Shown one piece after another: positions 7,902 to 46,335 of a stretch of 64,000 bases of DNA. Below the pieces are notes generated by a model. The model was given only the letters and a program-made list of their open reading frames with translations. It had not been told where the DNA came from and ran no database searches. The stretch lies in the NCBI GenBank assembly GCA_039545335.1, contig BCIN01000008.1:941528-1005527 (forward strand). Reading direction: 5' to 3'. The position numbers were made by a program, and so were the translations under genes. Source of the stretch: Kondoa subrosea (taxonomy: Eukaryota). Position 1 is the stretch's first letter; every line of letters begins with the position of its first letter.

Positions 7902-9870
7902 TCACGATTGCGCTTTCTCCTCAACTTTACTCCAGAAATCCCGTTCTCGCATATCGTCCACTTTGTCCACACCAGCAGACTTCACTTCGTCATACTCCGC
8001 TGTTTCTTCAGGTATCGCACTATGCTTCTGTCTTGCTTCCCTTTGAGCCGCTGCAACTCTTGATAACGCGTTGAGTAAAGAAGGTGTAGCTTCAACTGGA
8101 ACTGCGCTTGGCAAGTGATTCACAGGAGTAGACATCGTCGGTATCACTGCAGAAGGAGAAGGAAGAAGAGGAGGAGGTGTTGAAGTTCTGCTTTCTTCAA
8201 AATTCTGTCCTCTAAGACCTTGGTATCGAGCTGGTTTTTTGTTTCGATCGCCAAACATCTTTCCTAATAGACCTGGAGACTTGGATTGAATAGGTTGAGT
8301 AGGTAAAGAAGGTAAAGAAGTTTCTTCATATTCATCTTCCGAAGCAGCATCGAATTCATCCTTTTTCCCATCTTTGTTGTAAGCTGATACTAGAGTGTTT
8401 GAGCTCGCATATGAAGCTAAAGAAGTAGATCGTTGTCCATAAGTATCTACCGGACCATCATATCGCTTTTCTTCTCTAGTCGGTGATCGAACGGATTTGA
8501 ATCGAGCAGGTAGATCAGTCAAAGGAGATTGTTGATCTTCCGCGAAGAGAGTAGTACTAGTAAGAGAAGATCGATGTTTGTTCTTAAACATAGACCAGAA
8601 AGATTGCTCAGGTGCCCAAACTCCTTTCCGACCATTGAAAGAAACGTCCATATCTTTCTCTTCATCGATGAAGTGATGTAGATAACTGACGTTTCAATCA
8701 GCTTGGATTATTCATCATGAGGTATACATACGCATTGAAAGTCGCATCCGGATCTTCGCCAACCCGAGAATACAACCACCATTGAATGCCAGTCGCAAAG
8801 AAGCCTAATAACCAAGTTCCAGCTAGCAATCCTTTGAATTCCTTCGAGTTCCAATTCACAGTCATTGTATCTCCTATTGTAGTATAAGAAGGAATACCAT
8901 TCGGTTTAAGGAAAAGACCAGGTAAATCGATGAAACCGATTTGTTTGTGAAAATCGATAGCGCAAGCGATCAACCATGCACCGGCGATTGAAGAGAAGAA
9001 GCAGAGTGATTTTGATGATAGAGAAGGCCGGATTGCTGGAAGAGCTACAATACAGGACATGATGAAGGCGAATACCAATGGAACTATAAGAAAGACTTGA
9101 CGGAAGACTGAATTTGTCATTTGGAAAGATCCGAGCAAAAGGTTGGCACTGTCAAGAGCTGTTAGCGAGGCCCGAGAACATATGATTCTACTGACAGAGC
9201 GAGTCTAGCGCACGGGATCAGCTAGATTAGGCAAATGAGGGCTAAAGCTTACCCTCCTACTAGACCTTGAGTAGCACGACCAACATAATGCGATCTTGCT
9301 GAAAGCAGACCTCCAATTACGCTTGTGACGATCAGGATAGCTAGTAAAGCCATAGATGAAATTGGACTAGTTGTGCGACCTTCTTTTTTTGACAAGACCA
9401 CCAGCATCACGAATATCGAGGCGAGTGCTAATGTATGCGTAATCAGCTGCAGTAGCTCTTATGCCTGTCGACTTACGAAAGAAGATTACTCCGCCTATGA
9501 AACCACCTAAACCTGAAGCGAAATATGCTCTGCTTGAAGGATTGCCTTGTTCCTTGCCCATCTTGTTACCCCATCTCAAAGCTCGAACGTAGATAAAGCA
9601 AGAAGCCAGTCCTAGTATAATCATCGAAGCGGACAGAAGCACTCGAGCTAGAGAAGGTAAATCTTGGATCAGTACGCTGAGCATACCTAGACCTGTGCTC
9701 GATGTGGAAAGATCAGATGTAGCGGTCACTTGAAACCGAGGCTTGCTAGTAGTCGGATCAGATATAGCTTGAAGACTTTCTCGCAAGTGTGCTGCCTTCA
9801 TTTGATCGCTCCATGATTTCAAAGCTTCGTAGATGGCTGCACCATCTAATGAAGTACTTGTGAAGGACAT
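7902..9870 (-). CDS. Multi-pass membrane protein (DUF4203/TM7S3-like) with disordered C-terminal tail
   Basis: Hydrophobic ORFs 9367-9870 and 8698-9138 (SSIAGAWLIACAID..., LGFFATGIQWW) spliced to ORF 7902-8651. Confidence 0.6.
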
Positions 9871-10225
9871 GGTAGCACGTTGGGTGTAAGAGAAGAGCGC
9901 AAACGAAAATGGAAATGGAAACGAGCATGAAAACTGGACTCCTATGAATGCAAACGCGTGATCTGGGAGAGAGCTCTACGATAGCGACACAGAGATACGC
10001 TAAACGCGATCAGACGGCAAAAGAAGCGCGAGACCTTTGTTCAAGAGCAAGCTGCAATGCATTGTTTTTCGTTTCGAGTGCACCAAGTGATGACGCAACT
10101 TCGGACTTTCACCTTGACGTCTGTCTCTTCTGCTATGCTCTGTGATGAACCGATGTATTGTAACATTGTAGTCATTTCATCAAAAGTACATAATTCCCAA
10201 GTATTGCAATAACCCAGTCTCGCAT

Positions 10226-12534
10226 TTACACTTCCTCTGACTTCTCGTAATATCCAGCTGCTGCTTTCTCTTGGGCCACAATCCTGTTTGCTCCACGAGC
10301 CTGTTCGATGATCTCCATAGTTTTGGCTCTTTTTTGAGATGCACGGCCCGGTACACTGAACAAGATATCCATCTGATGACTAATGTCAGACCAGCAACAA
10401 GCCTTGCAGGAGAATTCTTACCTCTTCCAGCGAGATACCTTTTGTCTCGGGCACAAACAGGAAGACAAAGATCAATCCGAGGACTACAGCCGTTCCAAAG
10501 AGAATAAAGACACCGTAAGTGATGCTCTTGACCATGTAAGGGAAGCTGGTGGATGGAAAAGCGAGCTCAGTATATATTGTTATATAAAGACGGAGAGACA
10601 TACGAATAAGCAATGATGAATTGAGCTAGCCATTGTGCCATAGTCGTGATCACAACACAGACAGCTCGAACACCAGAGGGGAAGACCTCGGCACAGAAGA
10701 CCTGGAAAAATGTCAGCGCAAATAAATGAGAGGGTTGGACAGGGTATTTACCCATGGAATGCCGTTCCAGGAGAAGGCATAAAAGACCGCAAAGAGGTAG
10801 ATTGCGACTAAGGCAAAGTATGCTCCTCCGTCAAGAGCTGCCGAAAAGAGAACATCACATCAGCTACGACACAAGAATCTCGAGGCCTTGACATACGAGG
10901 TGGAGCATTGAAGGAATTGCTGACGGCAGAATACACGGCAATATAATAGTGACTGAAAGCAGCGCCAACTGAACCGATTAAGAGAGCTTTGCGTCTTCCG
11001 AGGCGATCAATACCAACAACCATCTGAATGAAGAATCGTCAAATGTGAATACTTCACAACAAGATTGAATTTGCTTACGAAAATGAGAGTCGCGACAGCC
11101 TTGACGATACCGTATATACCAGTAGCCAAAAGACTGACGTTCGTTCCGGTGAATCCGATGGACTTTACAATTGTAGGCGAGTAGTAGCTATGCACATAAA
11201 GTCAGAAGATATCTTGTGACCAGAAAGAGCAACCTACTTGAGAGCATTGATGCCGCTAAAATTTTGGAAAAACATCAAAGCCACGCCCAAGCCTAGACGC
11301 TTCAAGATACTGGGTTGACTCATAACACGGAGCTTGCTGGCCAAAGAAGTTTCTCCTTTGGTGATTGCCAAATCTCCAGCAAGTTGTTGCTCGATCGCAT
11401 TGACTTCGTAATCGATGTACTACCGAAAGATATGACTTTAACATGCGTTCTTTCAAAGAGGCATACAGGCTTACCTCATGATCTACAGGAAGATTTCGCA
11501 GAGTAGACAGCACCTTGCGAGCTTGATCAATTTTGCCCCGTTCAACAAGATAACGAGGACTCTCTGGCTGCAAGATCATAGCCGCCAACAATAGCGCAGC
11601 TGGAGCGAGTTGTAAACCGAAAGTGATACGCCACTGACTATTGGATGCTGCCATAGTTGTAGAGACACCCTATACGTAGCGATATAAGATACGTATTCAT
11701 CTCATAGTCTCTCGTAAGGGGAAAACAAACGTAGTTGACCCAGAAGCTAACCGATATAGGTGAATTAAGCGCGGGGCAAAGATATGAAAAATGCACGACT
11801 TACCCAATAACCAGCCAGAATTGCAGCTGAATCTCAAAGATACCAATCAATCTTCCTCTGAGAGCAGGTGGAGCGCATTCCGAGATGTATAAAGGTACAA
11901 TCAAAGACGAGGAACCAACACCGAGACCGGTTAAGACACGTCCACCGTCTACAGGCGTATGAACGTCAATGTAGAGCACCAGTAGTAGCCACCTGATACT
12001 CACAGATCATGCCAAGGCCAGTTGCAGCAGTTTGGATAGCAGCACCGATAGCGAAAAGAAGACCAGCGATCAGAAGACCAGGTTTTCGACCAAGCTTTGT
12101 AAGGATAGGATAGACGAAGAGTGCTCCGAAGAAGCAACCTCCTTGGAAAGTAGACACTGTTTGGATTGATTTAGGCTTAGGGGAATGTAAATGAATGCGC
12201 GAAGACTGACCGATATGCGACGACAATTCAGTAGCAGTTGCGGCATTGAGTCCAAATCGGCTGCGAAAAGCAGGTAAAGCGATTGTTCCGCCAATGAAAG
12301 CCGAATCGTAACCTATAAAGCAAAATTTAGTGGGCACGAAGGAAGCACGTAAAACTTGGCATACCAAACATAGCGGAAGCAAAGGAGGCCGAGAAGGCAA
12401 GGGCGTATGGTCTCCATCCATACACTTGAGAAGGAGCAATGTGCTCGCTATCGGACAATATTACTTGTTAGCTTTAGGTTGATCAACCGGATGCGACAAA
12501 CTTACGACTGATCTACTGGACTGAAGATACCCAT
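10226..12534 (-). CDS. qutD: Quinate permease (MFS sugar-porter family; QutD/qa-Y-like)
   Basis: N-terminus MGIFSPVE...[68 protein letters not shown] and [10 protein letters not shown] motifs; cluster context. Confidence 0.88.
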
Positions 12535-12562
12535 GTCGACTATTCGCTGATGTACTCTGACT

Positions 12563-12568
12563 GTGGGG
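12563..12568 (+). promoter_or_regulatory. Possible CreA/Mig1 catabolite-repression box (SYGGRG)
   Basis: GTGGGG in the ~180 bp divergent permease/dehydratase promoter. A 6-mer can occur by chance. Confidence 0.2.
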
Positions 12569-12714
12569 AGCAGGTCAAGGTTCAGGGAAAAGCCACAGAA
12601 TTCAAAATGGGGCCTCAAATTTCAAACGGGAAGCGGGCAATAGTTTAGTCGCATGGTAATCTTTTTTTTCTGTTTGCTAGATTGCCTGGCCGGCTGTAGC
12701 CTTGTCAAGCAGCT

Positions 12715-13820
12715 ATGGCGCTCTCTATTGCAACACTTTCATTGGGAAGTTGCCAACATCACGGACTTATCGACAAGTTACGAACAGCCAAAATAGCAGG
12801 CTATGATGCAGTAGAATGTAAGCTCCAATCCCTCATGTCGCGGATCGAAAGATATGAACAACTACATTGTAGTATACTATCCGGATTATCTTGCTTGGGA
12901 GAAAACAGTCATTCCGGGATTGTATGTGGCCGGCGATGAAGCATCTCTCAGGGCAGCCAGCAAACTCAAAAAGATCTGTGAAGATATGAACTTGACGCTC
13001 TGCTTGATGCAACCCATTATGGATTTCGAAGGTTGCTTGGTAGTGGAAGATCGGGAAGAAGCAATGGCCAAAGCAGAAGCCTGTCTACGCATTACTGCAG
13101 CTCTTTCGATCCCTATGGTACTCATCGCATCGCGTTGGCAACCTTCTGTACCCATTTCTTCCGATATCGAAGTGATTTCACAAGATTTGGCTGAACTAGC
13201 TGATTACGCTGCTACCCTACAACCTCCTGTCAAAATTGCGTATGAAGCCATCGGATGGGGATCGGTAGTCAACAGGTGGCAGCAAGCGTGGGAAGCAGTA
13301 CAGTTAGGAGATCGCCCACATCTTGGTTTAGTTGTGGATACATTCAACTGGCTGGCAAGAGAGTATGCGGATCCTTTCACACAAGGAGGCATCAAGCAAG
13401 GAGGTCGAGAGGAGTTCGACGCGTCTCTGAGCGAGTTCGTGCAATGTGTGCCGGGAGACAAGATCTTCTTCCTTCAGATAGCGGATGGCAAACGCTTTTC
13501 CAAACCACTTGTTCCATCGGGTGAAGATCTTCCTCTCTTGCTGCAATGGTCTCGAAAACATGTAAGTACTTCGATTTGTGTCTGATAGACCACGAGCACG
13601 GTTGACTCTGGTTGCTCAGCGACTATTTCCATGCGAAACAGCTCACGGCGCCTATCTTCCTATTCTTCCTATCATTCGAGCATGTCTCTCCTTGGGCTAC
13701 ACTGGACCTCTTTCGCTCGAAGTATTCAACTCGAGTCTTCTGAGCCAAGATCCCACAACTGTTGCTCTTCATGCCAAGAGAGGAATGCAAGGGTTGCAGC
13801 AAATGCTCTTGAGACTTTAG
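12715..13820 (+). CDS. qutC: 3-dehydroshikimate dehydratase (QutC/qa-4-like, xylose isomerase/AP-endonuclease-2 TIM barrel)
   Basis: SIATLSLG, IAYEAIGWG, VDTFN, FFLQIADG, WSR..RLFPCE..GAYLP, GYTGPLSLEVFN; two introns. Confidence 0.88.
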
Positions 13821-14185
13821 AATGCCAGTCAGTGGTCTTGCTACGCAGTCTTTGCATCGCTGACTTGTGTGCATAGCTCGTGGATCACCGGTGCCGCATA
13901 TATAGGGACTTTCTTCTTCGATGTAACATAGCGATACCGTCATATACTTCATTGTCCAAAGCATAGAGATGATCACCACCCAATTGATCGACACTCGACT
14001 CGAGCAGACAGGTTTGATTGAGACATGTTGCGTGACTATATGACCAGTGTGCGAAGTTCTTGTAAAAAAGAAGAGAGACAAAGAGAGAGGCAGAGAGAAA
14101 GAGAAAAAGAGCGGCTTCGAGAGAACGCAGACAAAATTTTCTGCCGCAATTATATACAAGAAGATACCTTCTGTTTAAACCCTGC

Positions 14186-17104
14186 TTAATTCCACAGCGA
14201 ATCGAGACCGCTCTGTTGCTGATACCGATTGAGGAGGTGGTCGCTGTTGTCCCCAATGGGGGAGGACGGTCGAGTATCGCCTCTAACACCCAACCAGGAA
14301 AGCACTTCGTCGCCGTTTGCCCTGCGCAAAACATCAACATGATGTTGGACCGTATAGTGAGCATCTTACCAATTAGCGATATCAAAAGATCCCATTGCTG
14401 CATCTAAATCTATTCCTTCAATATCCGTGCTCATCATACTGTTGGATCTGCCGTTCAAGGTAATTGCACTATCCAGCGGATTCGGAACATTCATCCAATC
14501 TTGTGTATCAGAAATTGGTGCAGAATTCGATGAAGAGGCTTGAAGCCGAGACAGAGAATTAGAGAAACTGGATGTAGACATGATGGATTCACTAGGAGTG
14601 ATTGCTGATGGAAATTGAGCCGGACTAGTACTTTGAGGTAATTGGGATACACCACATATTGGAAGACCTTGAAGACAGGAAATAGTTGTATTTATTGCAG
14701 GAAAAGCAGAGGAGAGCTGTTGTAAACTTTGTATGCAGAGATCGAGACTTTCTTTTTTGGGCCCATGAGCTATCTCTTGCATTGTTACTGCAGCAATGAC
14801 GACGCAGTACTCGAATAAGGCGGGTTGCGAGCGGCAAAGAGAAGGAGACTTGATCAGCAGGATCGACTGATGGAGACTTGTGAAAAGGGCTTCGGTACTG
14901 TTCGAAAATCCGGCCAGCCTAAAGCGAGTATTAAAGTGGCGCAAAAAGAACATATATCTCCAAAACCCACTGAAATTTCAAAGCCAATGTCACTAAAGTG
15001 TGACGAAATAAAGCTAATCCAGTCTTGTTTGGTGGTAGTATAGCCGTATCGCTTAATCGAAGATGTTGCGGTAGTGATGACTCCCACTGTGAAAGCCTCG
15101 CAAGAACATTTGGAATCTACCAAAGAGTGGTGAAATAATGTAACAAGACCTCTGTAACAGAGTACGAACCATGTTGGTGATTGTGCTTGATTGATTGAGC
15201 GAGGTATTGATGATCTTGCAGAGTTCCGAGCCAATCATACTCAGTTTCACTAGCTCTACAAACGTAGACAGCACGTGGTATCGCGCTATGCTAGTTTGCT
15301 GATGCTGAGAAAGCTGAGCAGGTAAAGGTCTCCATAATTCAACTTCTTCGGGGCCGACCGTGGATGGCAAAGGCAACTCTAGAGTTGAAGATTGCATCAA
15401 AGGTGTTTTGCCGATTCGCAGACTGATCAGAGTATCAAGGACCAAGAGACCATAGAAAGTGCGAAGAGCGTGAATTTGATCTTCGCCCTTATAGTAGGTA
15501 GATTCCGCTTTGCTTAGGCCTAGGTCAATAGCCATGTTGATGGCCAGAGCTGACGACTCAGTCAGCGCCTCGACATTTCCCATACACACGGACATTTCTA
15601 CTGACCTGCGTGGGCGCTGGCTAGTACTACAGATCCTTCGTTGAGATAGCCAAAAGAGATTAAGATCAGTGCTTGACAAGTAGGTAGTGACGAAGCTGGT
15701 AGAGCAAGAGTAGCAGCTAGACTCGCTCGCGCCAGCATTTTTGGTACTTCGAATCGCGCTTGAATGTCTGCATTGTTGAGATGAGGTAAAGCCAGGGCAA
15801 ACATGGCAAAGAGAAGTTCTGTTCTCATTCCCGCGTCATTGATCATCATTGATTTGCTGCTGTGTTCCGATTGCATGCACCAGGTTAATACTTTCTGCTT
15901 ATCGACAATTGGCAGGAAAGAATGGAAACCATCTTGCAAATAGGCATCCATAAGCGTTATCATGATATGCTCATCTGGAAGTTGTAGATCTGCGATTGAT
16001 GGTGGTGCTTTGATTTCGACTGGAACTGATAGGCGGTACGGACTGGTCGAATTAGCCAATAGCGAAGCGTATGAAGTAGCACCGAAATCGATTGAAGCTG
16101 CAGGTAGCAGAACAGACTCATGCTTTGAAGGAGAGGGTGGCGGCTGTAGAGAGGGATCAAGAAGCATCGGGAATGATGCTGGCGGGAGAGCATCGCTGCT
16201 TTGCCATATTGGAGGAAGTACATCAAAAATTGTAGGGAGTTGCTTTGGAGGCAAGACTAAGTCGTTCGTAAACAGACTTGAATCCAAAGGAGGCAATTGT
16301 AGGTCCGATTGAGGCGAATGAATTGGCTCTTGAGAGAAAGAAGGGCCGGCAGGTGGTAGAGCGGAAGTGCTTATACGGCGCTTCTTGTTGCGATTAGAAG
16401 TGTCGTCCTCCTCCTCTTCCGTCGTTTTGCTGTCAAGCCATGGTGCAACGATGCTACTTTTCCAAGCTTCAAAGGCCACATCTTCAGATGGTGAAGTTGG
16501 TAGACTATCATCTAATAGCGCAGATAAAGCTGAAGCTAGGTCGGGATAGAGGATAAGAAGGCTGCCAAAGATAATTTGCAAATGTCGTAGCTGGAGAGAT
16601 GCTTGAGAAGCAAGTTTTGAATAGCCAGCCGTAGGCCCTCGACGTTTTGCTGGCCTGACAAAGAGGTAATACGAATCAGCTTTGGACTAATCGCAATACT
16701 TGAGACAAGAAAGAGGCTCGAGAAGTGCGTGTATCCGAGAAACAGTGCGCAAGAGAGCAAGCATGTTGGAGCGAAAAGGACGACAGGGTAGCAGGAAGAA
16801 GTGGAAACTCACTTGGTATAGGTGCAATCGGGTCCTTTACCAGCTGCAAGACACTGTCCACAGGCAGGCTGCTCCGCACTTTTGACATAAATCAGCTTCT
16901 CCGGACAATACTCCAGGCTCGCGGACTCACTCGCATTTCCTGCGTTTGCGCGAGCACGGACTAATGAAACCATCAGTGAAAGGTTTACCGAAACGCTACG
17001 CTCTTACTCGCAGGCTTTCGTGACTCTTTTGCGAGCTAAATGCAGGACAAATGTTGAGCCTGGCTTGGCCAATACAACGACCTGGACGCACTGGTATCGG
17101 CCAT
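14186..17104 (-). CDS. Zn(II)2Cys6 transcription factor with fungal-specific TF domain (QutA/qa-1F-like activator)
   Basis: Spliced microexons give RKRVTKAC-x-PCSRKRRKC...PACGQCLAAGKGPDCTY. Middle homology region: YLQDGFHSFLPIVDK, LAINMAIDLGL, RTFYGLLVLDTLISLRIGK. Divergent from the repressor-like gene. Confidence 0.85.
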
Positions 17105-17307
17105 TCGGCACCGTTTGTATGATGTGTCCGCCTAGCTGACCCTCTTGCGTCGCTCCTCAAAGTGCCGACTCGCGGTGTCTAATCAAAATATTGGATCCCC
17201 CGAGTCCAAGCCAAGCTGCGATTGGCAAGCAGTAACGGAATCCAAGTTGCTGCTAGTGCTGAAGAATATAACTGCGCACTGCTTTCCGAGAAGTCTACTC
17301 AGCACGA

Positions 17308-19793
17308 ATGGATACTGTTTCCTCAAGGTCAGCATCGGAAACAAATCTCCATGGACTTTCGGCGCTGGCATTAGCTGCACAGCAACAAAGTACTGGATGC
17401 TTCGCTGAGGTATGACTTGAGCTGCGCTTTGTGTCTAAAACCTCATTCGCTGCAAGGATGCAAGTCTGATCTTACTGGGAGGAAGAGCATCGGGCAAAAC
17501 CACCATTGGCTTACTTACATCTACCTTTTTGCACTGGCCTCTTATCGACGCGGATAAGCTTTATGAAAAGATCTATCATTGCTCCATTGCCGAATCCGTC
17601 GCGAAACAAGGCTTTCCCTTATTTCGTGATCGAGAAGAAGCTATGTTGCGCAAACTGTTGGATCTGTATCCCCAGGTAAGCATGAGTAAGTGCGTTATAT
17701 TTGGTAGCTGAAATTCTTCGTTATCAAGAAAACGGTCATTGTGCTAGGCGCCGGTATCGTCGAACGTGAAGCCAACAGACGACAGCTTAAATCCTGGGGC
17801 GAGTCTGGGAAACCAGTCATACACGTATGCCGAGATCCGTCTTCGGTTTTGGCACATCTTTCGCGGCGTATATCTCGTTCTACGTATGCCAACTTAGAGG
17901 AGGAATACGATCAAGGTATATATCGCTATTTGAGAAAGGTCTGGCTCGCTGACATGTGTCGTCAGTCTGGCGAAGACGTCTGCCTCTCTGTCAGTAACCA
18001 AAAGTGAGATTGGCGAGAATCGCTTACCCATTTTTTCTCTAGATGTGGAAAGCTCGAATGCGGAATTCTTCAATCTCGAAGCTTGTCTACCCATAGATAG
18101 TCCAGCGTCCACTCTCGCTCTTAAGCCAGTCGAAAAGGCCGTTCGTCAATTCCTGGTTCACATCTATGGCCTGGTACCCTTGGTGAAGCCGTTGGATTTG
18201 AGTTGGACTGCGCCTCGTTCTTTATGTCTAGTCCTAGATGGATCGTCGACGGCAGCTATGGATGCAGAAGTATTAGACAAAGCTTGTGCTGGAGTTCAAG
18301 CGGTCGAATTTCGAGTTGACAAGGCTGATTGTTCTGATGGAATTGCAAGGCATGCAAATGGACATTCGGAAAGTCTTGGTTGGTTCCCTATCTTCCGGAC
18401 ATTATCTTTCTTGCGGCAAAATTCTGGTTTACCAATTGTCTTCACTCTTCGAACGAAATCTCAAGGCGGACGCTTTGCCGCCAGCAGATCCGAATACATC
18501 CAACTTATTGATCAAGCATTCCGGTCATGTTGCGAAATAGTTGATATCGAATTGATCTTGTCGGATGGGGAAATAAACTCGCTCATGAAAAAGAGAGGCC
18601 GGTCGAAGGTTATAATGACATACTGTTGGTCCGATGCTGAGCAATACATACAATGGAATGGTATTGAGGTTCAAGAGATGTATGAGCGGGCGAAGAGATT
18701 GGGTGCAGATGTTATAAAACTAATCAAACCAGCAAGAAACATCTCGGACAATTTTGCAAGCTTGTCTTTACAAGAATCTTTGGCTGACAGAAACGATATT
18801 CCTCTGATTGCTCTCAACTCTGGTGGCCTTGGACGGATGTCGTATCTATTCAATTCGCTCCTCACATCGGTCAATGCAACAAGCGATTTGTCTATTCAAG
18901 ATGAATTTCTTTTTTCGGCTTCAGACTTGCGCCAAGCCTGGCTGCTCAACGGAATCTCGACAGTGAAAACAATACGGTACTCTCCTACCCAATCAACAAA
19001 CAACAACCACCCAATGCAACTCATCCAAAACGCTATAGCTAAGCTCAATCTGCCTGTCGAATGCAAGACCACTCAAGAGCAGATGTCAAATATCCACTTA
19101 GATACGCATTGCGCAGGAGCTCTCGTTGAAATGCAGCGTTCGGATAGCCTTGAGCAATGCTCTGCGGCTGTAGCATCGATTGGCCATGGCGATACAATTC
19201 TAGCAGAATACAAGACTGCTTCATTCGCCGTCAAACAGCAACAGCCTACTGTCGGCCATTCTGGGTTCTATCTTGAAAATCTCCGCTCGAAGGCTATATT
19301 CAATTGTCTGACCACAAACCTCTCTCCCGTCAACGCCATAGGCTCTGCAAGTACCGCAGTAATTGTTGATGCTCACAGCAAATCTCATCGCGAAGTCCTC
19401 TACAGTCTCGCGTCTCTAATGGATATCAGTCTCATCTTCACTGTCAACTGTTCCCCTGCAATCCTCGATTTCGCTTCATCTCTTTCGCTCCCTTCGTCTG
19501 CAAGTCTCCAAATCATACAAGCTCCTTCCCTCGATCAGATACCTCAACAACAGGCGCATCGTTCGCCTAGCATTATTATATTCTGCGACCAAACTAGTGA
19601 ACTACCTCCGGCGTTGGTTGATACACCTACTGGAGGAACAATACTGGCTCTCGGCTCTCAGAAAGGAAAGTCTCGAGCAGACGGTTGGATTGAACTTGGT
19701 TCGGCATCTGTCGAACAGGAATTGGTGGCACTTCAATTCGAGGCTCTCACTGGTCAAAGATTGCCTCAAGGAAACGTCGAGAACAAGGTGTAG
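17308..19793 (+). CDS. qutR: Quinate repressor-like protein (QutR/qa-1S-like): shikimate kinase + type I DHQase + shikimate dehydrogenase-like domains
   Basis: P-loop LILLGGRASGKTTIG, FRDREEAML, VLGAGIVE; DHQase-I-like AVEFRVD, LPIVFTLRTKSQGGRF, DIEL, DVIKL; degenerate dehydrogenase C-terminus. No DHQ synthase or EPSP synthase domains. Confidence 0.8.
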
Positions 19794-19874
19794 GTACAGC
19801 AGCAATGAAGCGGCCCATACAATTGAACATAGATCTTTTCCTTGTACATTAGACACGAGTTTCTTATATAAATA

Positions 19875-20567
19875 TCATGATCTGGCAGCCTTCCGTTCAG
19901 CAGCTCGTTGAATAGCAAGACGAAGACCAAGCTCGTATCCAAAATAGCCGGCTCCTATTATTGTACCTGCACAAACTCGCGCGACAGTACTTTTATGACG
20001 GAACTGTTGTAATTTGATTAGCTGTAGCAATGAATGGCAGAAACAGAGACGAACTTCTTCTCGATTATGCACGTTAGATTGATGTACTTCAATGACAGGA
20101 GTCGGGGTTGCTTCAATTGCGTCATGCAGGGCATAAGAATAATGAGTGTAAGCACCTTTGAATTGATTAGCATCGGCAGATCGTAATCGATCAAGAAGAT
20201 GATTACCAGGGTTGAAAACTACACCCGCCAGACATCGCGAGTATTGTATAAGCTCGCAAAGTTCTCCTTCGTAATTCGATTGCGCGCAGACACTGCAATA
20301 GACATGTGAGATGAGCACAAAATCAGATATCTTTCAAAAGCTTACACCTTAACTCCTAGCTCAGCTCCAAATGCTGTTAGCTTCTCCTCCATATCTGCAA
20401 GCGTCAAAGTAGCGTATCTTCTCAAATTTACGATCAGGTCGAGTCTCAAGACAAAGCCATAGCACTTACGAGCCTGCTGCATCTTCGCGATACCCAAAGA
20501 GATTGTGATTGACGCTGTGCAGGAAAAGAAAAGTATCTTCCTCTCGATCTTTCTTCAGTGCTTCCAT
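19875..20567 (-). CDS. qutE: Type II 3-dehydroquinate dehydratase (QutE/qa-2-like)
   Basis: Spliced product: FLHSVNHNLFGYRE...QSNYEGEL...VFNPGAYTHYSYALHDAI...IEVHQSNVHNREEFRHKS...GYELGL. Confidence 0.92.
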
Positions 20568-20631
20568 TGGGTCAACTTTGCTCAAGCGGGTAACTCCAAC
20601 TTTTTTCTTGAATTGGTTGCTCGATTCTCCA

Positions 20632-21820
20632 TTAGGTGAAGACTTCTTTTGTACTAGATCTTCCGCTTCGATTTTCTGAAAAGCAAACCCTTTAGATGAT
20701 GGTAAGAAAGTAAACGCTGCACATACTGGCTTATCAGCTTCAGCCAGGAATACTCGTACATCTTCTTCGACTTTGCCTAGACTAGTCTTGCCTTGCCAGA
20801 CTATATGGAACTGCTGTCAGCTCCTTCTCATCAGACAAATGGAACGAAGCTTACGATACTGCTGAGCTAAACCTTGCTCAATCATAGCTTCAATACCAGA
20901 GACCACTGTCCAATTCCTATCTTGAGCATTCTGCATCATCGAAGTCCATCTTGGCTGTTTATAATTATCAGCAAAGTGCCAAAGACAGGGCTACCGGATA
21001 TCAAACTCACTTTGTAGCACATTTCAAGGAAATGTCTACCCTTGAAATCATCTTCAGGTTGAGCATGGTCTTTGAGCTCGAGCAAGAACTTGGCAATAGT
21101 GTAAACCATCTTTTCTTCTTCTGTAACAGGATCTATAGCTGGAATAGCACCAACGCCCAAACGTAATCGAGAACCAGATTGTTGTAAATTTGTAGTCTCT
21201 TCACGTGCTTGTTCGAGCGAAGTAAGGTGGATAATCTTGAATTGAGGATAGTGCTTCACCACCGCTGCTGTCTCGTTGGCATCGCGGTTGAGTAAGAAGA
21301 TAGTGTCTATGCCTAGGGACTGTAAAGCGAAGACAGAAGCTAGCGTCGTTCCACCGCCCCCAATGATGAAAGAATAGGAAGGGGAAGTTGCAGGGAAGAT
21401 AGGTTTAGTAGAATCTGCAAGATAATCTTGATATTTTGGATTCTCTTGAGCTATTGAACGAAGAAGAGCGTTACGAACGCCTAAGTAATCTGTATTTGTG
21501 CCAACGAGCAGAGGTTCTTGCTTCCCTTCCTCAAATTCCAGGTAAACAGTGTTGCAGGATCCTATTGCTTTGCTTGCAGGAGCCAGCTTGTCTACATACT
21601 GTAGCACTTCGACTTTGTTAGGCATCGTCACAGCGCATCCGCCAAAATCAGCACGTTTGACCAATTGCTGAAAGCGAGATGATGCAATTGACTTGGCTTC
21701 TTCCAATTCATACTGATGCGTTGGAAGACCGGAGTTGTCAAAGATGTAATTATGCAGAGCGGGAGCGCTGCTATGTGAGATAGGAAAGCCAAAGAGATAG
21801 AATTTCGGTCGACCGTCCAT
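20632..21820 (-). CDS. qutB: Quinate/shikimate 5-dehydrogenase (QutB/qa-3-like)
   Basis: YLFGFPISHSSAPALHN, GCAVTMPNK, IGSCNT, GTNTDYLG, IIGGGGTT, EMCY, GIEAMIEQG. Confidence 0.92.
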
Positions 21821-21974
21821 GTCAATGGATAGATTAAAGATGAAGAGCTTGAAGATGGTTTGGTTGCTTTGACAGGCGGAAAGCAAGAGAGCGGAAGACC
21901 GCAACGCAAAATACGGTGTCTCAAAATCGATCAGCCGCATGTCTCTCATTTGCTAATACAGCGTCAATCTTCGC

Positions 21975-23478
21975 CTACAACGGCCTTTCGTAATCAATCC
22001 GCTCAACACGTTTCCAAACTTCCTTCGCAACCCTTTCTTGACATTGACGAGGCGTTGAACCATCTTCACCCGAACAACCTCGCAGACAAAGATACAATCT
22101 CGAGCCTAGACCTGCAATAGGTAGCGGAGCATCTAGATCCTCGGGTGGGTTAGCAGAGAAAGTAACGCCGCTGTCTTAATGTTAATAACGATATCAAGGC
22201 AAAAGACGGCCACCGCACCCAGCTTCCGAAAGAATAATCATTCCAGCCTGGCAAGATAGAATGAGCTCAACGAATAACGAGGATTCGCATACCGCTACAT
22301 CCCACTCCCTATCAAGTAATTTGTTTTAGAATAGATCACATATTCTGATATCCAGACTTACCAACATCCTCCTTCCCAAAAACAATCTATTGATCCAGTC
22401 GCGACATATGCGATATCAAGTGCGGCAGATCCTAAGCTTCGAATACCATGTACCATACCTGATCAGAGCATTTCAGCTAACGATTGCTTCTAAAGATGTC
22501 GATCCACTAACCGCCTTTACCACCTCGAGAACCATACTGACAAGCCATATTCCAGAAGGACCTCACTTTCCTTGATAATTTCCCATCAAGGTCATCTTGT
22601 CTTTGTTTTCCCCACTGGACATACATATAAGTAAGCTAATGATATACTGTAGAAAGCGATCCTCGACATACTTCACAGGCAAATAAGCAACCTTTAGGTG
22701 CATCGAAAGGAAATGGAGGTGCAGGTGATACGTAAGGAAGCTTGGTCGAATCACTTGTAGGAGGCCAGGAGAAGTGAGGGTTCAGTGAAGAAGACTCGAT
22801 AATAGTCAAGTAGGATCCATGGTTGAGAATTCCAGAGAAGAGAGTCATTCCTGCATTCTTTGCTATTCCACCTAAACATGGAGCAAGAATACAGCCAACG
22901 ACAGGTTGGCCTCTATCCTAATGTGAGCAGAAGCATACGAAGGAAAGGCGGAACAAACTTAAGACAGAGCGCGACAGACTGGGAAGAAGATCAATGGACA
23001 GCAGACATTGTTGAGCTAATGACAGACTATACACCAATTAGGGAAGAGGCTGCGAGTACAGATAAGCACATAGACTATAACAGAAAAGCGAACGTAGAGC
23101 TACTGTGTCCAATTCACCGTGCCGTCGACTGCGGTAAATGAGCAACAGGAAGTGAGACAAGCGTAGCAGCGGACTAGGATCTATTATCCAGCATGGCCTA
23201 GAGTCCTCGACCAAATATCTCTTGCTTCCGCTTACATCGTAGCTCTCTTCACCAATAATCTGATGATCTGGATAACGAGCAAGAATGGAAGAACGGATCA
23301 GTTCTTCGACGTCTGTATCTGCCTTGGTAACGAGATCTGCTGAATTCGCCTTTACTCTTATCGACAATTCTTGAGCGGTATTCCGTGTTCTTGCTTGAGC
23401 TTGTTCTATAAGAAACAGGCCTGCTTGATGTAGGAGCTCTGCAAGAAAGGTATGTGCTTCTATCAAGTCAAGCGACAT
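21975..23478 (-). CDS. qutG: Inositol monophosphatase-family protein (QutG/qa-X-like)
   Basis: ADLVTKAD, IIGEES, WIIDP.DGTVN, EWDVA.AG.IILSEAG; C-terminus GSRLYLCLRG...QERVAKEVWKRVERIDYERPL resembles QutG/qa-X C-termini. Confidence 0.85.
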
Positions 23479-23921
23479 CAGTCAAGGTCGAAGTTGGAAG
23501 CAAGCACGGTGCGCGATTTTCACAATTAACTACTATCAGCTCCGGCAAGTTTGACTCAAGTTTGCTTCATTCCATTGAATCTCAACAAGATACTTGTACT
23601 AAACCTATTCGACATTACCTCGCGTCTGAAGTGGATTATAGAACAGTTATGGTCCCTTGCACTATTCACTCCCAAGTTAGCGACGGAGAGAGACTGTAAC
23701 AAGGAGTAGATACCTTTGATCAAGGATGTACTTCGAAAAATTCCCGAGCCATCTCTGTATCCGCCTAAGTTGCGAATCTTGGTCTGTGCTTAATTTAGAC
23801 TACGTGACGACGATTTGACTGTAGGTTCGTGACCACCACCTTGAGCTTCGTCTGAAGAAGAATGCGTAAGCGTAAGCACGATGACGCCGATCCTGCTGGT
23901 ATTCCCTTTTATCCCGGTCTG

Positions 23922-24566
23922 TCAGGACTGATTCTCCTCCAGGAGTAGACTCTTTTTGACTATCCAATCAGTTTGTATGTCCTAAGTAGGACAATTCAAT
24001 CAAACTAGCTGTCGAACGAGGTAAAAGCTGGGCTCACACCACCAACATCGAAATCATGTTGACCACAGATTTCAAGGCCTTGTTTCTTATAAAATCGTAA
24101 GGCTTTCGCATTTTCCTGCTAAACGTTCAGCTCTACATACGAGAGCATAACAGATATGTATTACCTGCCAAACACCAAGCCATAGTTCTTCATAACCTTG
24201 ATCTCGAGCCCAAGCTTCCGCTTCTTGCATCAACGACTGAGCAATCCCTTTCCCATGATAATTGCTATCCACATACAACTTTTGCAATTCAACAGCTTTA
24301 GGACGAGTAATGCAAGGTTCAGTAGATCCAGAATTCATTTCCGCATAACCAGCCAGTTTCCCATGATCAAAAGCCAAGATCCAACGACGTTTCGGATCTT
24401 CTATTTCAGATGTTAGAGCCGCGATCGAATAAGCGTCGTTGAGGTATTTATCCATTTGAGCTGGAGTGCATGAATGGGCAAAGCCTTGTCGGAAGCATCT
24501 GCATCCAAGATCGCTGATAGCCTGTGCGTCTTCAAGTGTCCCTATCCGATGAACAATATCGAGCAT
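23922..24566 (-). CDS. GNAT N-acetyltransferase (PaiA/spermidine acetyltransferase-like)
   Basis: ELQKLYVDSNYHGKGIAQSLM, LWLGVWQ-ENAKALRFYKKQG, QHDFDVG...DIQTDWIV. Confidence 0.85.
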
Positions 24567-24959
24567 AGCGAGCCAAGGGATTAGACAGTCTAGGAAACGA
24601 GTTGGACCGATTTGAGGTTATGTAGCGCGACTGCAAATAGCAGAACGGTCGGGACTGTTATGAATATGTTCTTTGATGCGATAGACAGCACTAGACCATG
24701 CAACAGCAAAGAGATACAGAATGATAAGTCGCTGTCATTAGTAAAGATGTTTTGTTGTCTAATGCACACAAGCAGCTACTCTTTGGCAAGTCTTTTGCAG
24801 CTATTGTTGCTTACCCTTGCAGTCACATATCATTCCAGTCTCATATTCTTGCAAGTTATTCAGCAGTGTATTCATCTCATTGCTTCTCTGAGACTGCTCG
24901 AGTTTCTATCAGCTGTGATTATCAGCTGTGATCATTCAGGAAAGGGAAAGGACTTACTT

Positions 24960-26896
24960 TCAGCCCTTCTTCTCCGTAAAGATGATCTCATCCTCCTCTA
25001 GCTTCATCTGATCAGCAGCAACCCATTTCTTGAGCTTCCGTTGAACCACTTTCTTTTCCGCAATCGTCAAACCATCCCAGCTTTTCTCCTCATCTTTATC
25101 CAATAAAACCGCTCTGAAATCTTCATCGTAGAGTTCTTCTGCTCCAATGTTCTGACTCTGACAGTACAGAGCAGTTCTTTTCGCAAGCGAATCTTGCGGA
25201 ATGAACAATACGATTACGGAAAGCAATTCTTGATTCACATCAGGCGAAGAAGAAGAAGCAGTGGGAGGAAGAGAAGGTTGCGAAGGTTCTTTGTCCTTCT
25301 CAGAAGCAGGAGCAAGGATGGAAGAGGGCACTCGGATATCCAGATTGGTATAAGCGAGCTGTCCATCGGAGTGCTCGCTATGAGAGAACTCGACTTTCAG
25401 GATAGTCCTACAGAAAGATAATCAGCCTAGTTCAGCTTCGATGAAAAATAGTAGAATTACCAAATGCCTTCTTCGTCCTTAGTTGCTTCAGCTCTGGCCT
25501 TACACTTCCGCTTTGCAGCGCCTTTCCGCTGCTCACCTGAATGAATGCACCGAATCTTGCAAGAGTCACTATGCTGCCAAAAAGGATCCCACTTCCAACT
25601 ACTTCCAGCTGGTACGCTTTGCTTGAGTGCGTCGATAAAGCTTTGGCGCGAAACGAATTTGACACCTTTCTTCAGACGAATGACTTGGGTGGTACAAGGT
25701 GTTTCGGAGTCTGCTGCCACAGAATAGATTCGTGAGGAATGGCTTGTAGTTGCTGTAGATGCAGAAGTCACATCTTGATCAACTCTCCTGCGCTTGGTCG
25801 GAGCTTGAGGTGGCACTGAAGCAGCTTGGGGAGATACAGAGCGAGCTAAGAGCTGGTCCTGCGCAGCGCTGCCATCTTTCTTGCGCTTGCGCTTGACTTC
25901 TTCAATGATAGGTTCTGCTTGAGTTCCAGGTGTAGGTGTTGCATTTGCTTCAGTATGGCTCTTCTTGCAAACTTCAGTTGCATCTGCTGCTACTTTCGTC
26001 TTCTTCCGCTTGCGAGGCTGCTCAGGTCCAAATTCTTGAACTTCATCACCGGATTGCACGTCTTCAGCAGGCGTCGACACGTTTTCTTGCTGTTCGCTCC
26101 TTCTTTCGCGAGCTTTGTTAGAGGAAGATGAAGCAGCCACACTTCTTTCAGGCTCTTGGAAGTTGTTGCCGCTGTCTCTGCGAGCATTATCCGGCTGACT
26201 TGCTTCCATTTCTTCGTCAGTTTCAGGATCTAAATCAATCGCTTGTCGTTTGAAATTTGCTGTCTTACTTTTTGTCTTTTCCGTGCAGGCTTGTGTCCTC
26301 AGAAGCTCAGCCCTCGCAATGATTTCTGGCTTGATTTAGCCAAGACACGCAAATGTGAGCACAGAAACTCACTCTGTTCAAGGATATAGGACCGTCCTAA
26401 AGAGATATCCAAAGAGCCATCTTTCATTTGGATCTTCGCCAATGTACTTGGCAATCTCATTCCTCCGGTAATGGTAGGATGCATGACCGTTCAAGTTTGC
26501 ATCTGCACAGCTGGTGAGTGATTGAACCTTATCAAATAGTACTTTGAGTCGGAGTCGCAGAGTAGGGCAATTGTGATTTTTCGGGTATGTATAAGGCGCT
26601 CCGATGCGGATGGGTTGAGACAGGTAGAGTACACTACGGAGGGCCGATAACTGCGTCAAGAGCACTTGAGTATTCTTGATCCCGCCTTTGCGGTTCATTT
26701 CCAGGTCGATATGATAGGCTGCGGCCAGTTCCTTGAGCCTCTGGCGCGACATATCCTTTAGCACTTCATTCGTGCGCAGGTCATCGAATGCAGAATCATC
26801 CAACGACAAGCCATACAGAGTGGGTCCGTCTTGAGTCACTCGAAAAGTCGATTCGATGATCTTATTCCCTTCAAGAACGGTAATTGCCTCGCTCAT
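24960..26896 (-). CDS. Hypothetical protein with FAR1/WRKY-GCM1-like Zn DNA-binding domain (junction near 26380 unresolved, possibly disrupted)
   Basis: KGVKFVSRQSFIDAL...IRCIHSG...KCKARAEA...GIW-TILKVEFSHSEH; paralogous to 35755-37302. Confidence 0.55.
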
Positions 26897-27504
26897 TGCT
26901 GTACAGAGACAAGAGAACAAGCTGTTTCTGAGATGGAACAGCCTAGCAAAGGTACGGCGTTTTCATAGAATGTGGAAAGAAATGACTGAAAGAAACTTGA
27001 TAATTCGAATGAAGCAAGGTCAAAGAGCGACACTCATTAGCAGCCGCACAAGCCGAATTTCAAGTGAGAGGACAGAATTTACGATACAAGCATGCAGTAG
27101 ACAGAGCTCGCGCATGCGAGTCTCGTTGCTGTTTTGAATTTGCCGGTATGTACTAGCATTGGGATGAGCTTCCTAGGTCTTCCTGCGTAACTCCACACAT
27201 TACCATATTTCGAGATACAATTGGCAAAGGAGACTGAAAAGAGTCTGAAAAAATGTTGTCCGGAACTGAGATACGATTCAAGTTCAACATAGTGGACGAA
27301 AAATACATAGCGGGACGCCGCGATGCGATGCCAAATTTGACAGTGGCATCAAGAGTCACAAGCATAGATGCAACCCTCTGTACTACAACAAAAGCCAATT
27401 GCATTAATAGTCCGGAGGAGGGAACGTTGAGTTTCCAGCTAATCGAGAGTGTATGAGCCATGTCAGCTTCAGTTGAGTGAACCTTACAATGAACGACAAG
27501 ATTG

Positions 27505-29605
27505 TTATCTCAAACGCAACTGCACGGATGTCTGCTCAGCTTCTTGGTCATCCATGGTAACATCAATATCAACATCTTCTCCATAGATTGACTCTCTTCT
27601 TCCACCAGCGGAATGAGCAAGACCCAGGTCAGATACCCACGATTCATCCCATTCGGCAGGAGCATCAATCTCGTCTTCCTCCTCATCCCATTCATGTTTC
27701 TCCATCTCAAGCTCTTCTTCCAAAGCATGTAATGCACTGAAATTATTCGGCAAACTGAGCTCAAAGCCATACCCACTATCATCATAAACGCAAGCTGCTT
27801 CTCGTTGCAAAGTACCTGAGCCTCGATGCGTAGCTAACAAATGAATGGCTTGTTGTTCGAGATCGTTTTCAAAATCATCAGGTCGAACAATAATGTCGTC
27901 GTCTTCTACGTCCTGCAAGGGCTCATCTTCTTCTTCTTCTTCTTCTTCATCCTCGTCTTCCTCATCCTCATATCCAGTACGAAAAATGTACGGCTCGTAG
28001 AGATGCAAAGGCAAAAGTGGTTGAAAAGAGGCAGTATGCTCATCTTCTTCAGCTTCAGAAAGCTCAATTCGATTAATGGCTGATCGATCCTGCAAAGGTG
28101 ACGAGAATCTCCTAGTTGATCGAGTCACAGGCGCATAAGAAGGTGGGGCGGGAACATTTTGACCACGCAAGCGCAAAACTGATCGTCGACCAACGACTCG
28201 ATTGTAAGGCGAAACGGTAGAGTTTCGATTCAGGTTGGCCATGGCTTTCGCTTTGGTTGATTTGGGTTTCACCCTCTTTTTCGGTGCATTCAAGTTGATT
28301 TGACGCAAGTTGATCAATTCAGCTCGCAAAGCTTGCTCTTCTTTTTCGTCCAAATCCTCAGCTTGCAACTTCATGTGTTCGATCTTTTCCATCAGGCGAT
28401 GAACTCGATGATTGAGCGCGAGCAAAGTGCTTTTAACCGACGGATCTAATAAGCCGAGCAGATTTTGATGAAGAGACTGAGGTGGAATGAAGGTTAAAGA
28501 ATAAGTCTCATCTTCTTCGCCAGAGTCGTCGGAGGTCGAAGTAGTGGAAGACTGAGTACGTGTATAAGCAATAATCTCATGATTCTCTTGAGAAGATGAT
28601 GCAAGCTGATCCTTTGTGCTCGATGAATGAGTCGAGCGCTGAGAAGCTGGACTAGCCGGTGGAGTAGAAATTAAGCAGGACTCAATAATCGTCTGACCCA
28701 GCTCGAGATGACCGCAGACGTCTGTAAGCAAGCCGAAAGATTCCTCTTCGATAGATCGATCCGATTCAACTGGGTTCTGGATGTCGCGCTGCAAAGTACG
28801 AGCCAACCAAACTTTTGTTTCTGGTGCGACAAAGTATTCCTGTTGAAAAGTAAGTCTGTTGAATGTCAAACAAAGTAATATCGACAGACTTTTGGGGCCA
28901 GAATAGTTGCCATTTCGCCAGAAAGCTTTCGAGCTACTCACAAAAGAGTCATCAGCTGGATACATCTAAAGACAGCGACATACCAGCTGATTTCTAGCAG
29001 ACCAAGTCTCGAATATGCCAGCAAAACAGCAAAGGAACACTCACAAGCTTTTCGATCTTACTGTAGGCGAACCACTGCGCATAAGTACGAGGAAGCAAGT
29101 CTTTGAGCATAGGATTGACAAAGCGGGTGAACAGGTTGAGCAATTCGGATTTCGTTGAACGAGTCAGCCAGTTTAGGCCTTCTTCAACGTGTTCTTGTCG
29201 AAAGCTGCCATTCATGATCAATTCTTCGACATTAAAGCGTACAGATGTAGAAGCTCTAGATTCCTCAGCTACAGGTGAGGGTGTCCTGCGATCTTCGTCG
29301 TCGCTATCGGGAGCCAATGGCCATTCACCTGCGGCCATAGATGCCGCGACTGATACATGTGTTAGCCATGCGAGATCTCTGAGAAGCAATCTGAACACAC
29401 TAGTCTCTGATGTCAAGGAGCAAAAGAACTCGTAGGCTTGCATCATATAGCGCAGCCAAAGCATCAAACAATCTTGAAGCGAATCTGCTTCTTCTGCTTC
29501 CCATTGATCATCGTACGTATCAAGGTAGAGCTGACTGCCATCGTTGAACATGACTGTTACGAGACCTTGTCCAACATCGAAAGTAATGTCATCAATGATT
29601 GTCAT
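27505..29605 (-). CDS. Hypothetical protein with acidic low-complexity C-terminus
   Basis: 203-aa and 486-aa ORFs linked by GT-AG introns; coiled-coil segment and poly-D/E tracts. Confidence 0.65.
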
Positions 29606-30185
29606 TCGCCTGCTTTAATAGTCAACACTTTGGACTGCAGATGTGACAGAAGACTCACCAGATAGAGCGACTGGAAATATACCGTATCAGAAGCTGTTCT
29701 TGCAAGTGAGAAGCAGACCAACTCTGCATGTAAAGTCGTATCTACATGGATTCATGAGAAAGGGAGACAAGAAAGAGCAGGGAGCGTACACCAATCAGCT
29801 TCGAGCTCTTCTTGACAAAAGGTCTGTATGCGTGTGAAAGGTTCAGGTGCATGTACTTTGCCTTGCCGTGGATCTTTGTTGGAATCGCTGAACGCATCGC
29901 AAATCGGTAAAGTCAAGACGAATTCTAGCAGCGACTTGGGTAGCGACTCGAAGCTGCACTAGTAGTAGAGCTCAGCAGGAGGGATAAGCGTCAAAGTCAA
30001 AGTTTGAGGTTCCGACATTATCGTCTACGGAAAACAACAAGTTTCGAAAAGTCATTGCGAGAGTCAAGCGGACGACAAGAATCGTAGAAGAAGTAAACGA
30101 TATTATTGTCCTAATGCAAACCTATAAAAGAAGCTCTATGCGATCGAAGCGGTACTGCAAAGAAGTGTCCACTTCCTGAAACTGC

Positions 30186-45282: not shown

Positions 45283-46335
45283 ATGGCTACAGCAGAGCCC
45301 CCAAAGTTCAATAAGCAGCTTACGAGCGAAGAGATGCTTGAGGCGAAGAAGTCAGCTCTGAGGGCGTCTAGCGGACTGTCGGAACGGAATTGGACACAGG
45401 TCGCACACATATCCTGACCAATGACAGAAGTGTCGCCTTCAAGAGTCTTCTTTTCCAACACTTTATTCTTTCTTCTGGTTCTGATCTCATTCAAGCCCTG
45501 CATGCTGTTTCTCTTGAAGATGAAATCGCGATGTCGGCGTTCACTGATAAGAATCCAATGCCATACATCGTCACTGCTGTATACAATCTGCTGAGGGTTC
45601 CGACTTATCTTTACAAGCAACCCTTACCGGTCGCCTTAAAGCTTCTCAATGCCTATTTCGACATTATTCTTTCTTTCGCTTCTACAGTCCATCCGATCAC
45701 TCCAGAAGCTGCAGGAGACGACAGAGCAGCTGAAGAGCAAGCTATCTCCAAATCTCTCATGCGACTATTACGTACATGTATCAGCCGCCTTGATGTAGTT
45801 GAAGAAGGTTTTCCGGATCTTATTCATACCGGTGTATACACAGACTCCAAGCATAATCCCAGAAATCGATCCTCACCTCCTTCCAAAAAAGCTATGCTCA
45901 TCCGACTCCTCAATTTCTCTAATGGAGATATCAGAAAAGCTGCAAGCGCCTTATCTCACTTTCTAGGATACTCAATACCCAGATCTAGATACGAAGACGT
46001 TCCTCCAATTACTGCGGAAACGATGAAGAAAACAGCCGAAGAGAGATTAAACCTCAGCGCGGATCTGATGGAAGAGATCAAAGCCCAAAGGCTAACCGTG
46101 TGCTTTACTTGTGGAGGATACAATGAAATACCGGAGCAAGGGAAAATGAGGTTGAAACCTTTCCCTATTTGTACTGGCTGTTTGGTGGCATGCTTTTGTT
46201 CTGTAGCATGTCAAACAAAAGGTGAGCACCTATATTATGCGGTATAAGAGACCAGAGGCTGACAACTCGCTAGATTGGAACAGCGGGTCAGATGGACACA
46301 GGTCTTTGTGTAAGAGAATAACGATATCTTCATAA
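45283..46335 (+). CDS. MYND-type zinc finger protein
   Basis: CFTC...CTGC...FCSVACQTK-DW...HRSLC at the C-terminus, across an intron near 46222-46273. The 5' exon structure is uncertain. Confidence 0.7.

Follow-up and report, generated by a model that had tools for sequence, protein, structure and literature searches.

A basidiomycete-type quinate cluster with a probable quinate dehydrogenase-type II dehydroquinase fusion and an AROM-derived repressor

Eukaryotic gene clusters equipped with their own activator and repressor have their founding example in the qa cluster. A locus with the same set of functions is found in Kondoa subrosea, at positions 10226 to 23478 of a stretch of 64,000 nucleotides (nt) of contig BCIN01000008.1 (positions 941,528 to 1,005,527; hereafter the window), and it raises the question of how such a cluster came to be there: whether it is ancient, was acquired horizontally and then filled with introns, or was assembled convergently, the three histories offered by an earlier reading of the sequence alone. 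On balance, we consider it moderately probable that the locus is an intact and inducible quinate cluster of a Pucciniomycotina-like yeast, old and inherited, in which the dehydroquinase has been replaced by one of actinobacterial type and fused to the quinate dehydrogenase. That the cluster serves the catabolism of quinate or shikimate is, from its predicted gene content, very likely. This pathway, as outlined in PMC12610400, proceeds by uptake, oxidation to dehydroquinate, dehydration to dehydroshikimate and a second dehydration to protocatechuate.

The region 9000-25000 was inspected, and 55 stop-to-stop frames were scanned against Pfam. From 10226 to 23478 the matches follow in the order Sugar_tr (-), AP_endonuc_2 (+), Fungal_trans (-), SKI with DHquinase_I (+), DHquinase_II (-), Shikimate_dh_N (-) and Inositol_P (-); the NCBIfam models of QuiC-type dehydroshikimate dehydratase, aroQ and aroD were also matched, all below their whole-protein cut-offs because pieces alone were scanned. 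Six spliced models are predicted, all free of internal stops (Table 1), with a total of 43 GT-AG introns (median 53 nt, range 45-158). The intergenic gaps, in cluster order, are 180, 365, 203, 81 and 154 nt and therefore leave no room for an unrelated gene; the first separates the divergent permease and dehydratase genes, the third the divergent activator and repressor genes, and the last the monophosphatase gene from the fused gene downstream of it on the same strand. The G+C content of the cluster (0.44-0.49) is that of the whole window, and its flanks are unrelated, namely a frame with no Pfam match upstream and a GNAT acetyltransferase downstream. Six consecutive genes of one pathway are not due to chance. 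The core of the qa and qut clusters is present, in that quinate dehydrogenase, type II dehydroquinase and dehydroshikimate dehydratase are encoded together. The sequence-only reading had placed all seven functions at these positions and strands with nothing unrelated between them, and had recognized the gene set of the qa and qut clusters, activator/repressor pair included; the Pfam and NCBIfam matches, the intact models and the short gaps bear it out. Its count of seven separate genes does not stand: the dehydrogenase and the type II dehydroquinase share the frame 21820-19875, with no stop between them, so that the cluster probably consists of six genes with seven functions. A search of four upstream regions for CGG repeats and for an activator-site consensus gave three CGG/CCG pairs and no consensus site, and is uninformative.

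Table 1. Predicted genes of the quinate cluster and parts of the fused gene (window coordinates; aa, amino acids).
Feature	Coordinates	Strand	Basis and remarks
QutD/qa-y-like MFS permease	10226..12534	-	531 aa, 13 introns; PF00083 above cut-off in two pieces
QutC/qa-4-like 3-dehydroshikimate dehydratase	12715..13820	+	330 aa, 2 introns; PF01261; NF042435 QuiC E=1e-22, below cut-off
Zn2Cys6 activator (QutA/qa-1F-like)	14186..17104	-	798 aa, 8 introns; PF04082
AROM-derived repressor (QutR/qa-1S-like)	17308..19793	+	760 aa, 4 introns; PF01202 + PF01487; start codon uncertain
Fused quinate dehydrogenase-type II dehydroquinase (predicted)	19875..21820	-	525 aa, 7 introns; PF08501 + PF01220; one open frame
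Dehydrogenase part, residues 1 to ~330	20727..21820	-	end matches C-termini of L050 and L010; alignment and tree
Junction intron, 51 nt, in-frame, stop-free	20676..20726	-	splice scores
Charged linker leading into dehydroquinase N-terminal extension	20568..20675	-	open fused frame
Type II dehydroquinase part, residues ~365-525	19875..20567	-	4 introns; PF01220 91.9 bits (cut-off 23.3); PDB matches; actinobacterial-like subtype
QutG/qa-x-type inositol monophosphatase family protein	21975..23478	-	350 aa, 9 introns; PF00459

For comparison, 80 metagenome loci were kept of 208 relatives among 351 matches, about half of them being AROM genes. Besides an ascomycete cluster (L035), they include partial clusters in three basidiomycete-type lineages, with permease, dehydroquinase, dehydratase and dehydrogenase side by side in L050, dehydrogenase, dehydratase and dehydroquinase in L073/L075, and monophosphatase and dehydrogenase in L009/L010; no regulator was seen at these loci, all of which are cut by contig ends. 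An ascomycete assignment of L073 was considered and rejected, the dehydrogenase tree placing it with Cutaneotrichosporon.

The first question is the history of the regulatory pair. In the predicted activator the six-cysteine pattern lies at residues 13-42, its zinc cluster being split across small exons, and the match to the L035 activator is weak (34% over 65 aa, E=0.19). The acidic C-terminal motifs of the two proteins resemble each other, and a phase-2 intron interrupts both at positions that can be aligned; as a sign of kinship this is suggestive only. Intron 4 of the activator model (16655-16812, -), with 158 nt, is three times as long as the other 42 and may hide a micro-exon. The repressor contains shikimate kinase, type I dehydroquinase and degenerate shikimate dehydrogenase domains, that is, the last three domains of AROM without the first two, and it aligns over its full length to the ascomycete protein P0148 (26%, E=3e-48). 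It is without the dehydroquinase histidine, whose role is described in PMC9074039, and without the dehydrogenase motifs, the kinase P-loop being mostly kept; a truncated AROM is ruled out by the missing first two domains and the lost catalytic motifs. A first tree of 49 rows had an unresolved base and joined long branches, and 25 rows were dropped, those of L015 among them. In the resulting 24-row trees the repressor groups with P0097, P0111 and P0148, for which "QutR-type" is our own label, given from domain layout in a set that holds no characterized QutR; support is 99/98 under LG+G4 and 90 under a mixture model with a quick search. The repressor is the sister of these three rows and is not nested among them, and it has in common with them two multi-residue motifs absent from AROM, one of five residues in the dead dehydrogenase domain and another after the kinase domain. 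A placement with the ascomycete QutR is favoured by these alignments and trees, and we lean, with some reserve, towards inheritance of both regulators.

The best surviving alternative is that the enzyme genes are native and the regulatory pair is not, the repressor having been re-derived from the AROM of the host itself, which would be convergence, or the pair having come from an ascomycete. After P0201 (43%), the single repressor relative among 8000 scored candidates, the best BLAST match is a basidiomycete-type AROM (34%); by an approximately unbiased (AU) test, descent from basidiomycete AROM is not rejected (p=0.44), and the count of private columns is nearly even (8 vs 6). These points weigh against inheritance, and the three nearest Atlas clusters, which are mostly Ascomycota, and the failure to see a repressor at the basidiomycete-type loci, most of them short, can be added to them. 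On the other side, both tree models put the repressor with the QutR type, as a sister rather than from within, the two motifs are not those of AROM, and the phase-2 intron occurs in the same activator motif as in L035. We consider a separate history of the regulators somewhat unlikely. A predicted complex of the repressor (residues 38-619, from the long open reading frame) with 84 residues of the penultimate activator exon, which covered half of the acidic motif because the intron splits it, scored 0.00 and is not evidence either way. A different fungal quinate cluster, L015 (88-7849), encodes a dehydrogenase and a transcription factor, together with a dehydratase that is long and has an additional C-terminal domain and a repressor derived from AROM; the latter is without the QutR-type motif, has a very long branch and could be independently derived.

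The second question is whether the dehydrogenase and the dehydroquinase are really one protein. From its start at 21820 the dehydrogenase frame runs through two introns, reaches the endpoint of its stand-alone relatives and passes into the type II dehydroquinase with no stop on the way, and this read-through holds with the junction intron either spliced (525 aa) or kept (542 aa). All GT-AG pairs in the junction block were listed and scored. With a branch-aware splice score, for which the other 42 introns served as the training set (median 18.1, lower quartile 14.9, minimum 8.5), the in-frame junction intron reaches 18.6 and the best stop-making alternative 13.3, about 5 points lower. No stop interrupts the fused frame of the linker, against two in each of the other frames, and the codon score of the linker is best in the fused frame (0.16 vs -0.37 and -0.24), the open linker frame by itself being weak evidence of fusion. 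Furthermore, similarity to a basidiomycete dehydroquinase, P0205, starts about 10 residues before Met365, the sole in-frame start, and a shifted read-through in the relative P0202 fits the modelled dehydrogenase end. We consider it likely that a single 525-aa protein is encoded.

Several points count against the fusion. A fixed-position splice matrix ranked the junction acceptor below those of all 42 other introns; both splice models rest on our own intron picks, and the branch-aware one was devised after the result of the matrix; a stop-free stretch of 108 nt in the right frame is expected in about 8% of non-coding segments; and every splice in the cluster is a prediction. The rival reading is an ordinary seven-gene cluster, in which a weaker splice would take the dehydrogenase to a stop at about 20654 and a separate dehydroquinase would begin at Met365 (20567). 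Several GT-AG pairs do yield a stop at the point where the dehydrogenase would naturally end, the best of them scoring inside the accepted range, and AAG acceptors occur in 5 of the 42 introns; Met365 stands at a normal distance ahead of the first strand, the genome is compact, and L050, L010 and L073 each have a stop of their own at the end of the dehydrogenase. Two genes, however, would have to manage with 86 nt for terminator and promoter, compared with 154 nt in the other same-strand gap, and would have to do so in an A-rich spacer whose codon use, read in the fused frame, is like that of coding sequence; the better score of the in-frame intron and the similarity to P0205 upstream of Met365 point the same way. 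We therefore hold separate genes to be unlikely. The two domains were found together in none of 247 proteins (223 with a dehydrogenase match, 21 with a dehydroquinase match) and in none of 160 loci, and PF08501 in none of the 21 long dehydroquinase-containing proteins, a search that is weak evidence of absence.

The dehydroquinase half of the predicted fusion probably differs from the fungal qa-2 types in origin. Bacterial relatives were taken from a scan of prokaryote genomes, as the best 80 of 587, of which 43 entered the tree, L074 being dropped as a near-copy. The closest among these 80 are from Nocardiopsis and Streptomyces (L081-L083, 54-59% identity; 55% for Nocardiopsis L081), and identity to P0205, from Microbotryomycetes sp. 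JL201, is 63%. In a tree of 50 rows the window and JL201 sequences group together (97/95) and join those of Nocardiopsis and Streptomyces (99/98); the ascomycete loci and the basidiomycete-type L050 and L073 form a separate qa-2-type group (99/94). It is likely, judging from this tree, that the enzyme has a separate, actinobacterial-type origin from the fungal qa-2 types. Some results weigh on the other side: a tree constrained to a single group of fungal dehydroquinases is worse by 8.7 log units but withstands the AU test (p=0.35), the branch is long (0.75 vs 0.11 for P0205), and the donor is not fixed because the bacterial sample was collected by patterns drawn from this very subtype. The Nocardiopsis and Streptomyces enzymes stand alone, with no dehydrogenase within 3 kb, and that of JL201, in the same supported group, is likewise not joined to a dehydrogenase, unlike the predicted fusion.

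Three observations concern these relatives. P0205 is a model of 773 aa whose N-terminal part looks like a membrane protein and which ends in a type II dehydroquinase that is truncated; it is probably two genes merged by annotation. In Nocardiopsis L081 (2869-6303) frames near the dehydroquinase look like those of a TRAP transporter subunit and of a protein of RraA/aldolase type; a catabolic role in the bacterium would fit this. In L050 (2765-9235) the dehydrogenase groups with Microbotryum (99/93) and the dehydroquinase is of the qa-2 type; both dehydroquinase types therefore occur in basidiomycetes.

The fusion could also be real and its dehydroquinase half decaying or inactive, AROM carrying out that step. 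The long branch, an altered first motif and a lid loop longer by two residues would agree with this, and an A. niger strain without the catabolic dehydroquinase is described in PMC12610400 as growing on quinate unaffected. Decay is nevertheless improbable, in our view, for a frame that is intact across four introns and that keeps all the catalytic residues of type II enzymes (N384, R391, Y398, N448, H454, D461, E472, H474, R481 and R485).

As to the host and the age of the cluster, the best named matches of the dehydrogenase exon (57 matches among 1330 candidates) are Microbotryum, Atractiella, Microbotryomycetes JL221 and Pseudohyphozyma, followed by agarics, a Trichosporonales yeast and smuts, with ascomycetes last. 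In a dehydrogenase tree of 52 rows rooted on AROM domains, the window sequence joins two closely related environmental sequences (73-76% identity) and Leucosporidium P0010 and P0153 (95/97), and the ascomycete clade (99/99) excludes it. These matches, the JL201 sister of the dehydroquinase and the many short introns agree with the earlier impression of a basidiomycete host, probably of the Pucciniomycotina as far as cluster genes and introns indicate. Two reservations apply: the basidiomycete side of the dehydrogenase tree is weakly supported (82/71), and the placement leans on genes of the cluster (an Atlas lookup of the PWP2 end gave the family only and no host placement).

The remaining enzymes and the permease were compared with these loci, the permease and the monophosphatase by segment. 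The permease is 32-50% identical to that of L035. The dehydratase (39% to L050, 33% to L035) and the monophosphatase (48-60% to L010 and 41-50% to its qutG-type counterpart in L035, in a set of cluster genes that holds no canonical inositol monophosphatase) are nearer to the basidiomycete-type loci; one dehydrogenase and one monophosphatase intron are common with L010, and none exactly with L035. According to PMC12610400, the monophosphatase has no known role, even in model fungi. Although complete clusters with regulators are known from Pezizomycotina (PMC12610400, PMC10512348), which hold 89.4% of the clusters of one survey (bioRxiv 10.1101/184242), and the repressor resembles ascomycete proteins, transfer of the whole cluster from an ascomycete with later gain of introns, one of the histories proposed before, is disfavoured to the point of being very improbable by the dehydrogenase lying outside the ascomycete clade, the dehydroquinase not being of qa-2 type in the best tree, and the similarities and introns just given. 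Of the three histories, an old and inherited cluster with one replaced gene is probably the best fit; the proposal of an ancient cluster is kept in that form, having missed the probable separate origin of the dehydroquinase and the probable fusion.

In such a cluster, quinate would enter through the permease and be oxidized to 3-dehydroquinate by the N-terminal domain of the fused enzyme, whose C-terminal type II dehydroquinase would yield 3-dehydroshikimate; the separate dehydratase would convert this to protocatechuate, feeding a beta-ketoadipate pathway encoded elsewhere. The repressor is thought, for the systems treated in PMC10512348, to be an inactive enzyme whose binding of the inducer frees the activator, and by analogy the AROM-derived pseudo-enzyme would block the Zn2Cys6 activator as long as neither quinate nor an intermediate is bound. 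Enzymes of type II form dodecamers (PMC9074039), and therefore the fusion, if its dehydroquinase still assembles in this way, would display up to twelve dehydrogenase domains on a cage; this could pull the unfavourable first step and part the dehydroquinate from the biosynthetic pool of AROM. In evolutionary terms, the cluster would be old and inherited within Dikarya, its dehydroquinase slot having been filled by an actinobacterial-type gene that gained introns and was later fused to the dehydrogenase. The full version of this proposal, an undescribed bifunctional enzyme made of a native dehydrogenase and a horizontally acquired actinobacterial dehydroquinase, forming a dodecamer with twelve dehydrogenase domains and channelling dehydroquinate, together with regulators orthologous to qa-1F and qa-1S in a module dating to the Dikarya ancestor, is tentative and as a whole rather doubtful.

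The rest of the window offers little that relates to quinate. The GNAT acetyltransferase beyond the cluster (24087-24617, -) matches, among the NCBIfam models, most closely that of PaiA, a bacterial spermidine acetyltransferase (E=6e-21, below cut-off), and is possibly of bacterial origin; no quinate link was seen for it. Several long low-complexity frames of 194-486 aa, without Pfam match, lie at 25457-29614 (-), and from 33799 to 63999 there are ordinary eukaryotic genes, namely an amidase, SLX1, SEC24, an NCBP3-like gene, a Brr6-like gene, a 2OG-Fe(II) oxygenase, an MLP1/TPR-like gene and a Utp12-domain protein. A frame without Pfam match at 45372-46247 (+) ends in a cysteine pattern resembling a MYND finger.

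No new pathway is added by this locus. With a full set in a basidiomycete, the age of the regulatory module becomes testable, and the pair is a distant one for comparison with that of Neurospora, which is used as a binary expression system. If expressed, the fused enzyme would be a natural test of the channelling of catabolic dehydroquinate, and in protocatechuate production it would lead from quinate to dehydroshikimate with one gene. The replacement of the dehydroquinase suggests that the layout of a cluster can persist while one of its genes is swapped for a bacterial one. The evolution of AROM-derived modules is termed an open question in PMC10512348.

How novel the locus is depends on what it is compared with. 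Literature searches found no basidiomycete quinate cluster with regulators, no description of a fusion of dehydrogenase and type II dehydroquinase, and none of an actinobacterial dehydroquinase in red yeasts; supplements of surveys, which were outside their scope, may list such clusters, one survey having covered 556 genomes for clusters anchored on quinate dehydrogenase (bioRxiv 10.1101/184242). The accessible parts of PMC9027234 and PMC4466345 mention only the permease. The novelty claimed by the sequence-only reading survives in part, in that no identical cluster was found described, and is reduced by the partial clusters of the three other basidiomycete-type lineages. Unlike what is predicted here, these have a separate dehydrogenase with its own stop and, in L050 and L073, a dehydroquinase of qa-2 type.

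Among characterized systems, the A. niger modules (QutA/QutR, GaaR/GaaX, TanR/TanX and a fourth pair), as presented in PMC10512348, likewise have a Zn2Cys6 gene adjoining that of a pseudo-enzyme which corresponds to the three terminal domains of AROM; here the dehydrogenase-like domain is more eroded, with no PF08501 match. The accounts of such modules that were available cover ascomycetes only (PMC10512348). The bifunctional dehydroquinase/shikimate dehydrogenase of plants and some bacteria (PDB 2gpt; NF006802) also carries both functions on one chain, with a type I dehydroquinase first, whereas in the predicted fusion a type II enzyme comes last, in a catabolic cluster. The closest counterparts are the qa cluster of Neurospora crassa (qa-1F, qa-1S, qa-2, qa-3, qa-4, qa-x, qa-y) and the qut cluster of Aspergillus nidulans, in which, according to PMC12610400, all seven functions are adjacent, as they are in the window. 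The likeness extends to the activator and the AROM-derived repressor as divergent neighbours, to the divergent permease and dehydratase genes and to the qa-x/qutG-type gene adjoining the dehydrogenase; the differences lie in the basidiomycete host, in the probable count of six genes with the qa-3 and qa-2 functions in one frame, in a dehydroquinase that the best tree separates from the qa-2/qutE type, in the absence of qutH and in the 43 short introns. The locus is probably the known qa/qut system in an altered form, and what is new would lie less in the cluster itself than in the fusion, the replacement of the dehydroquinase and the distant pair of regulators.

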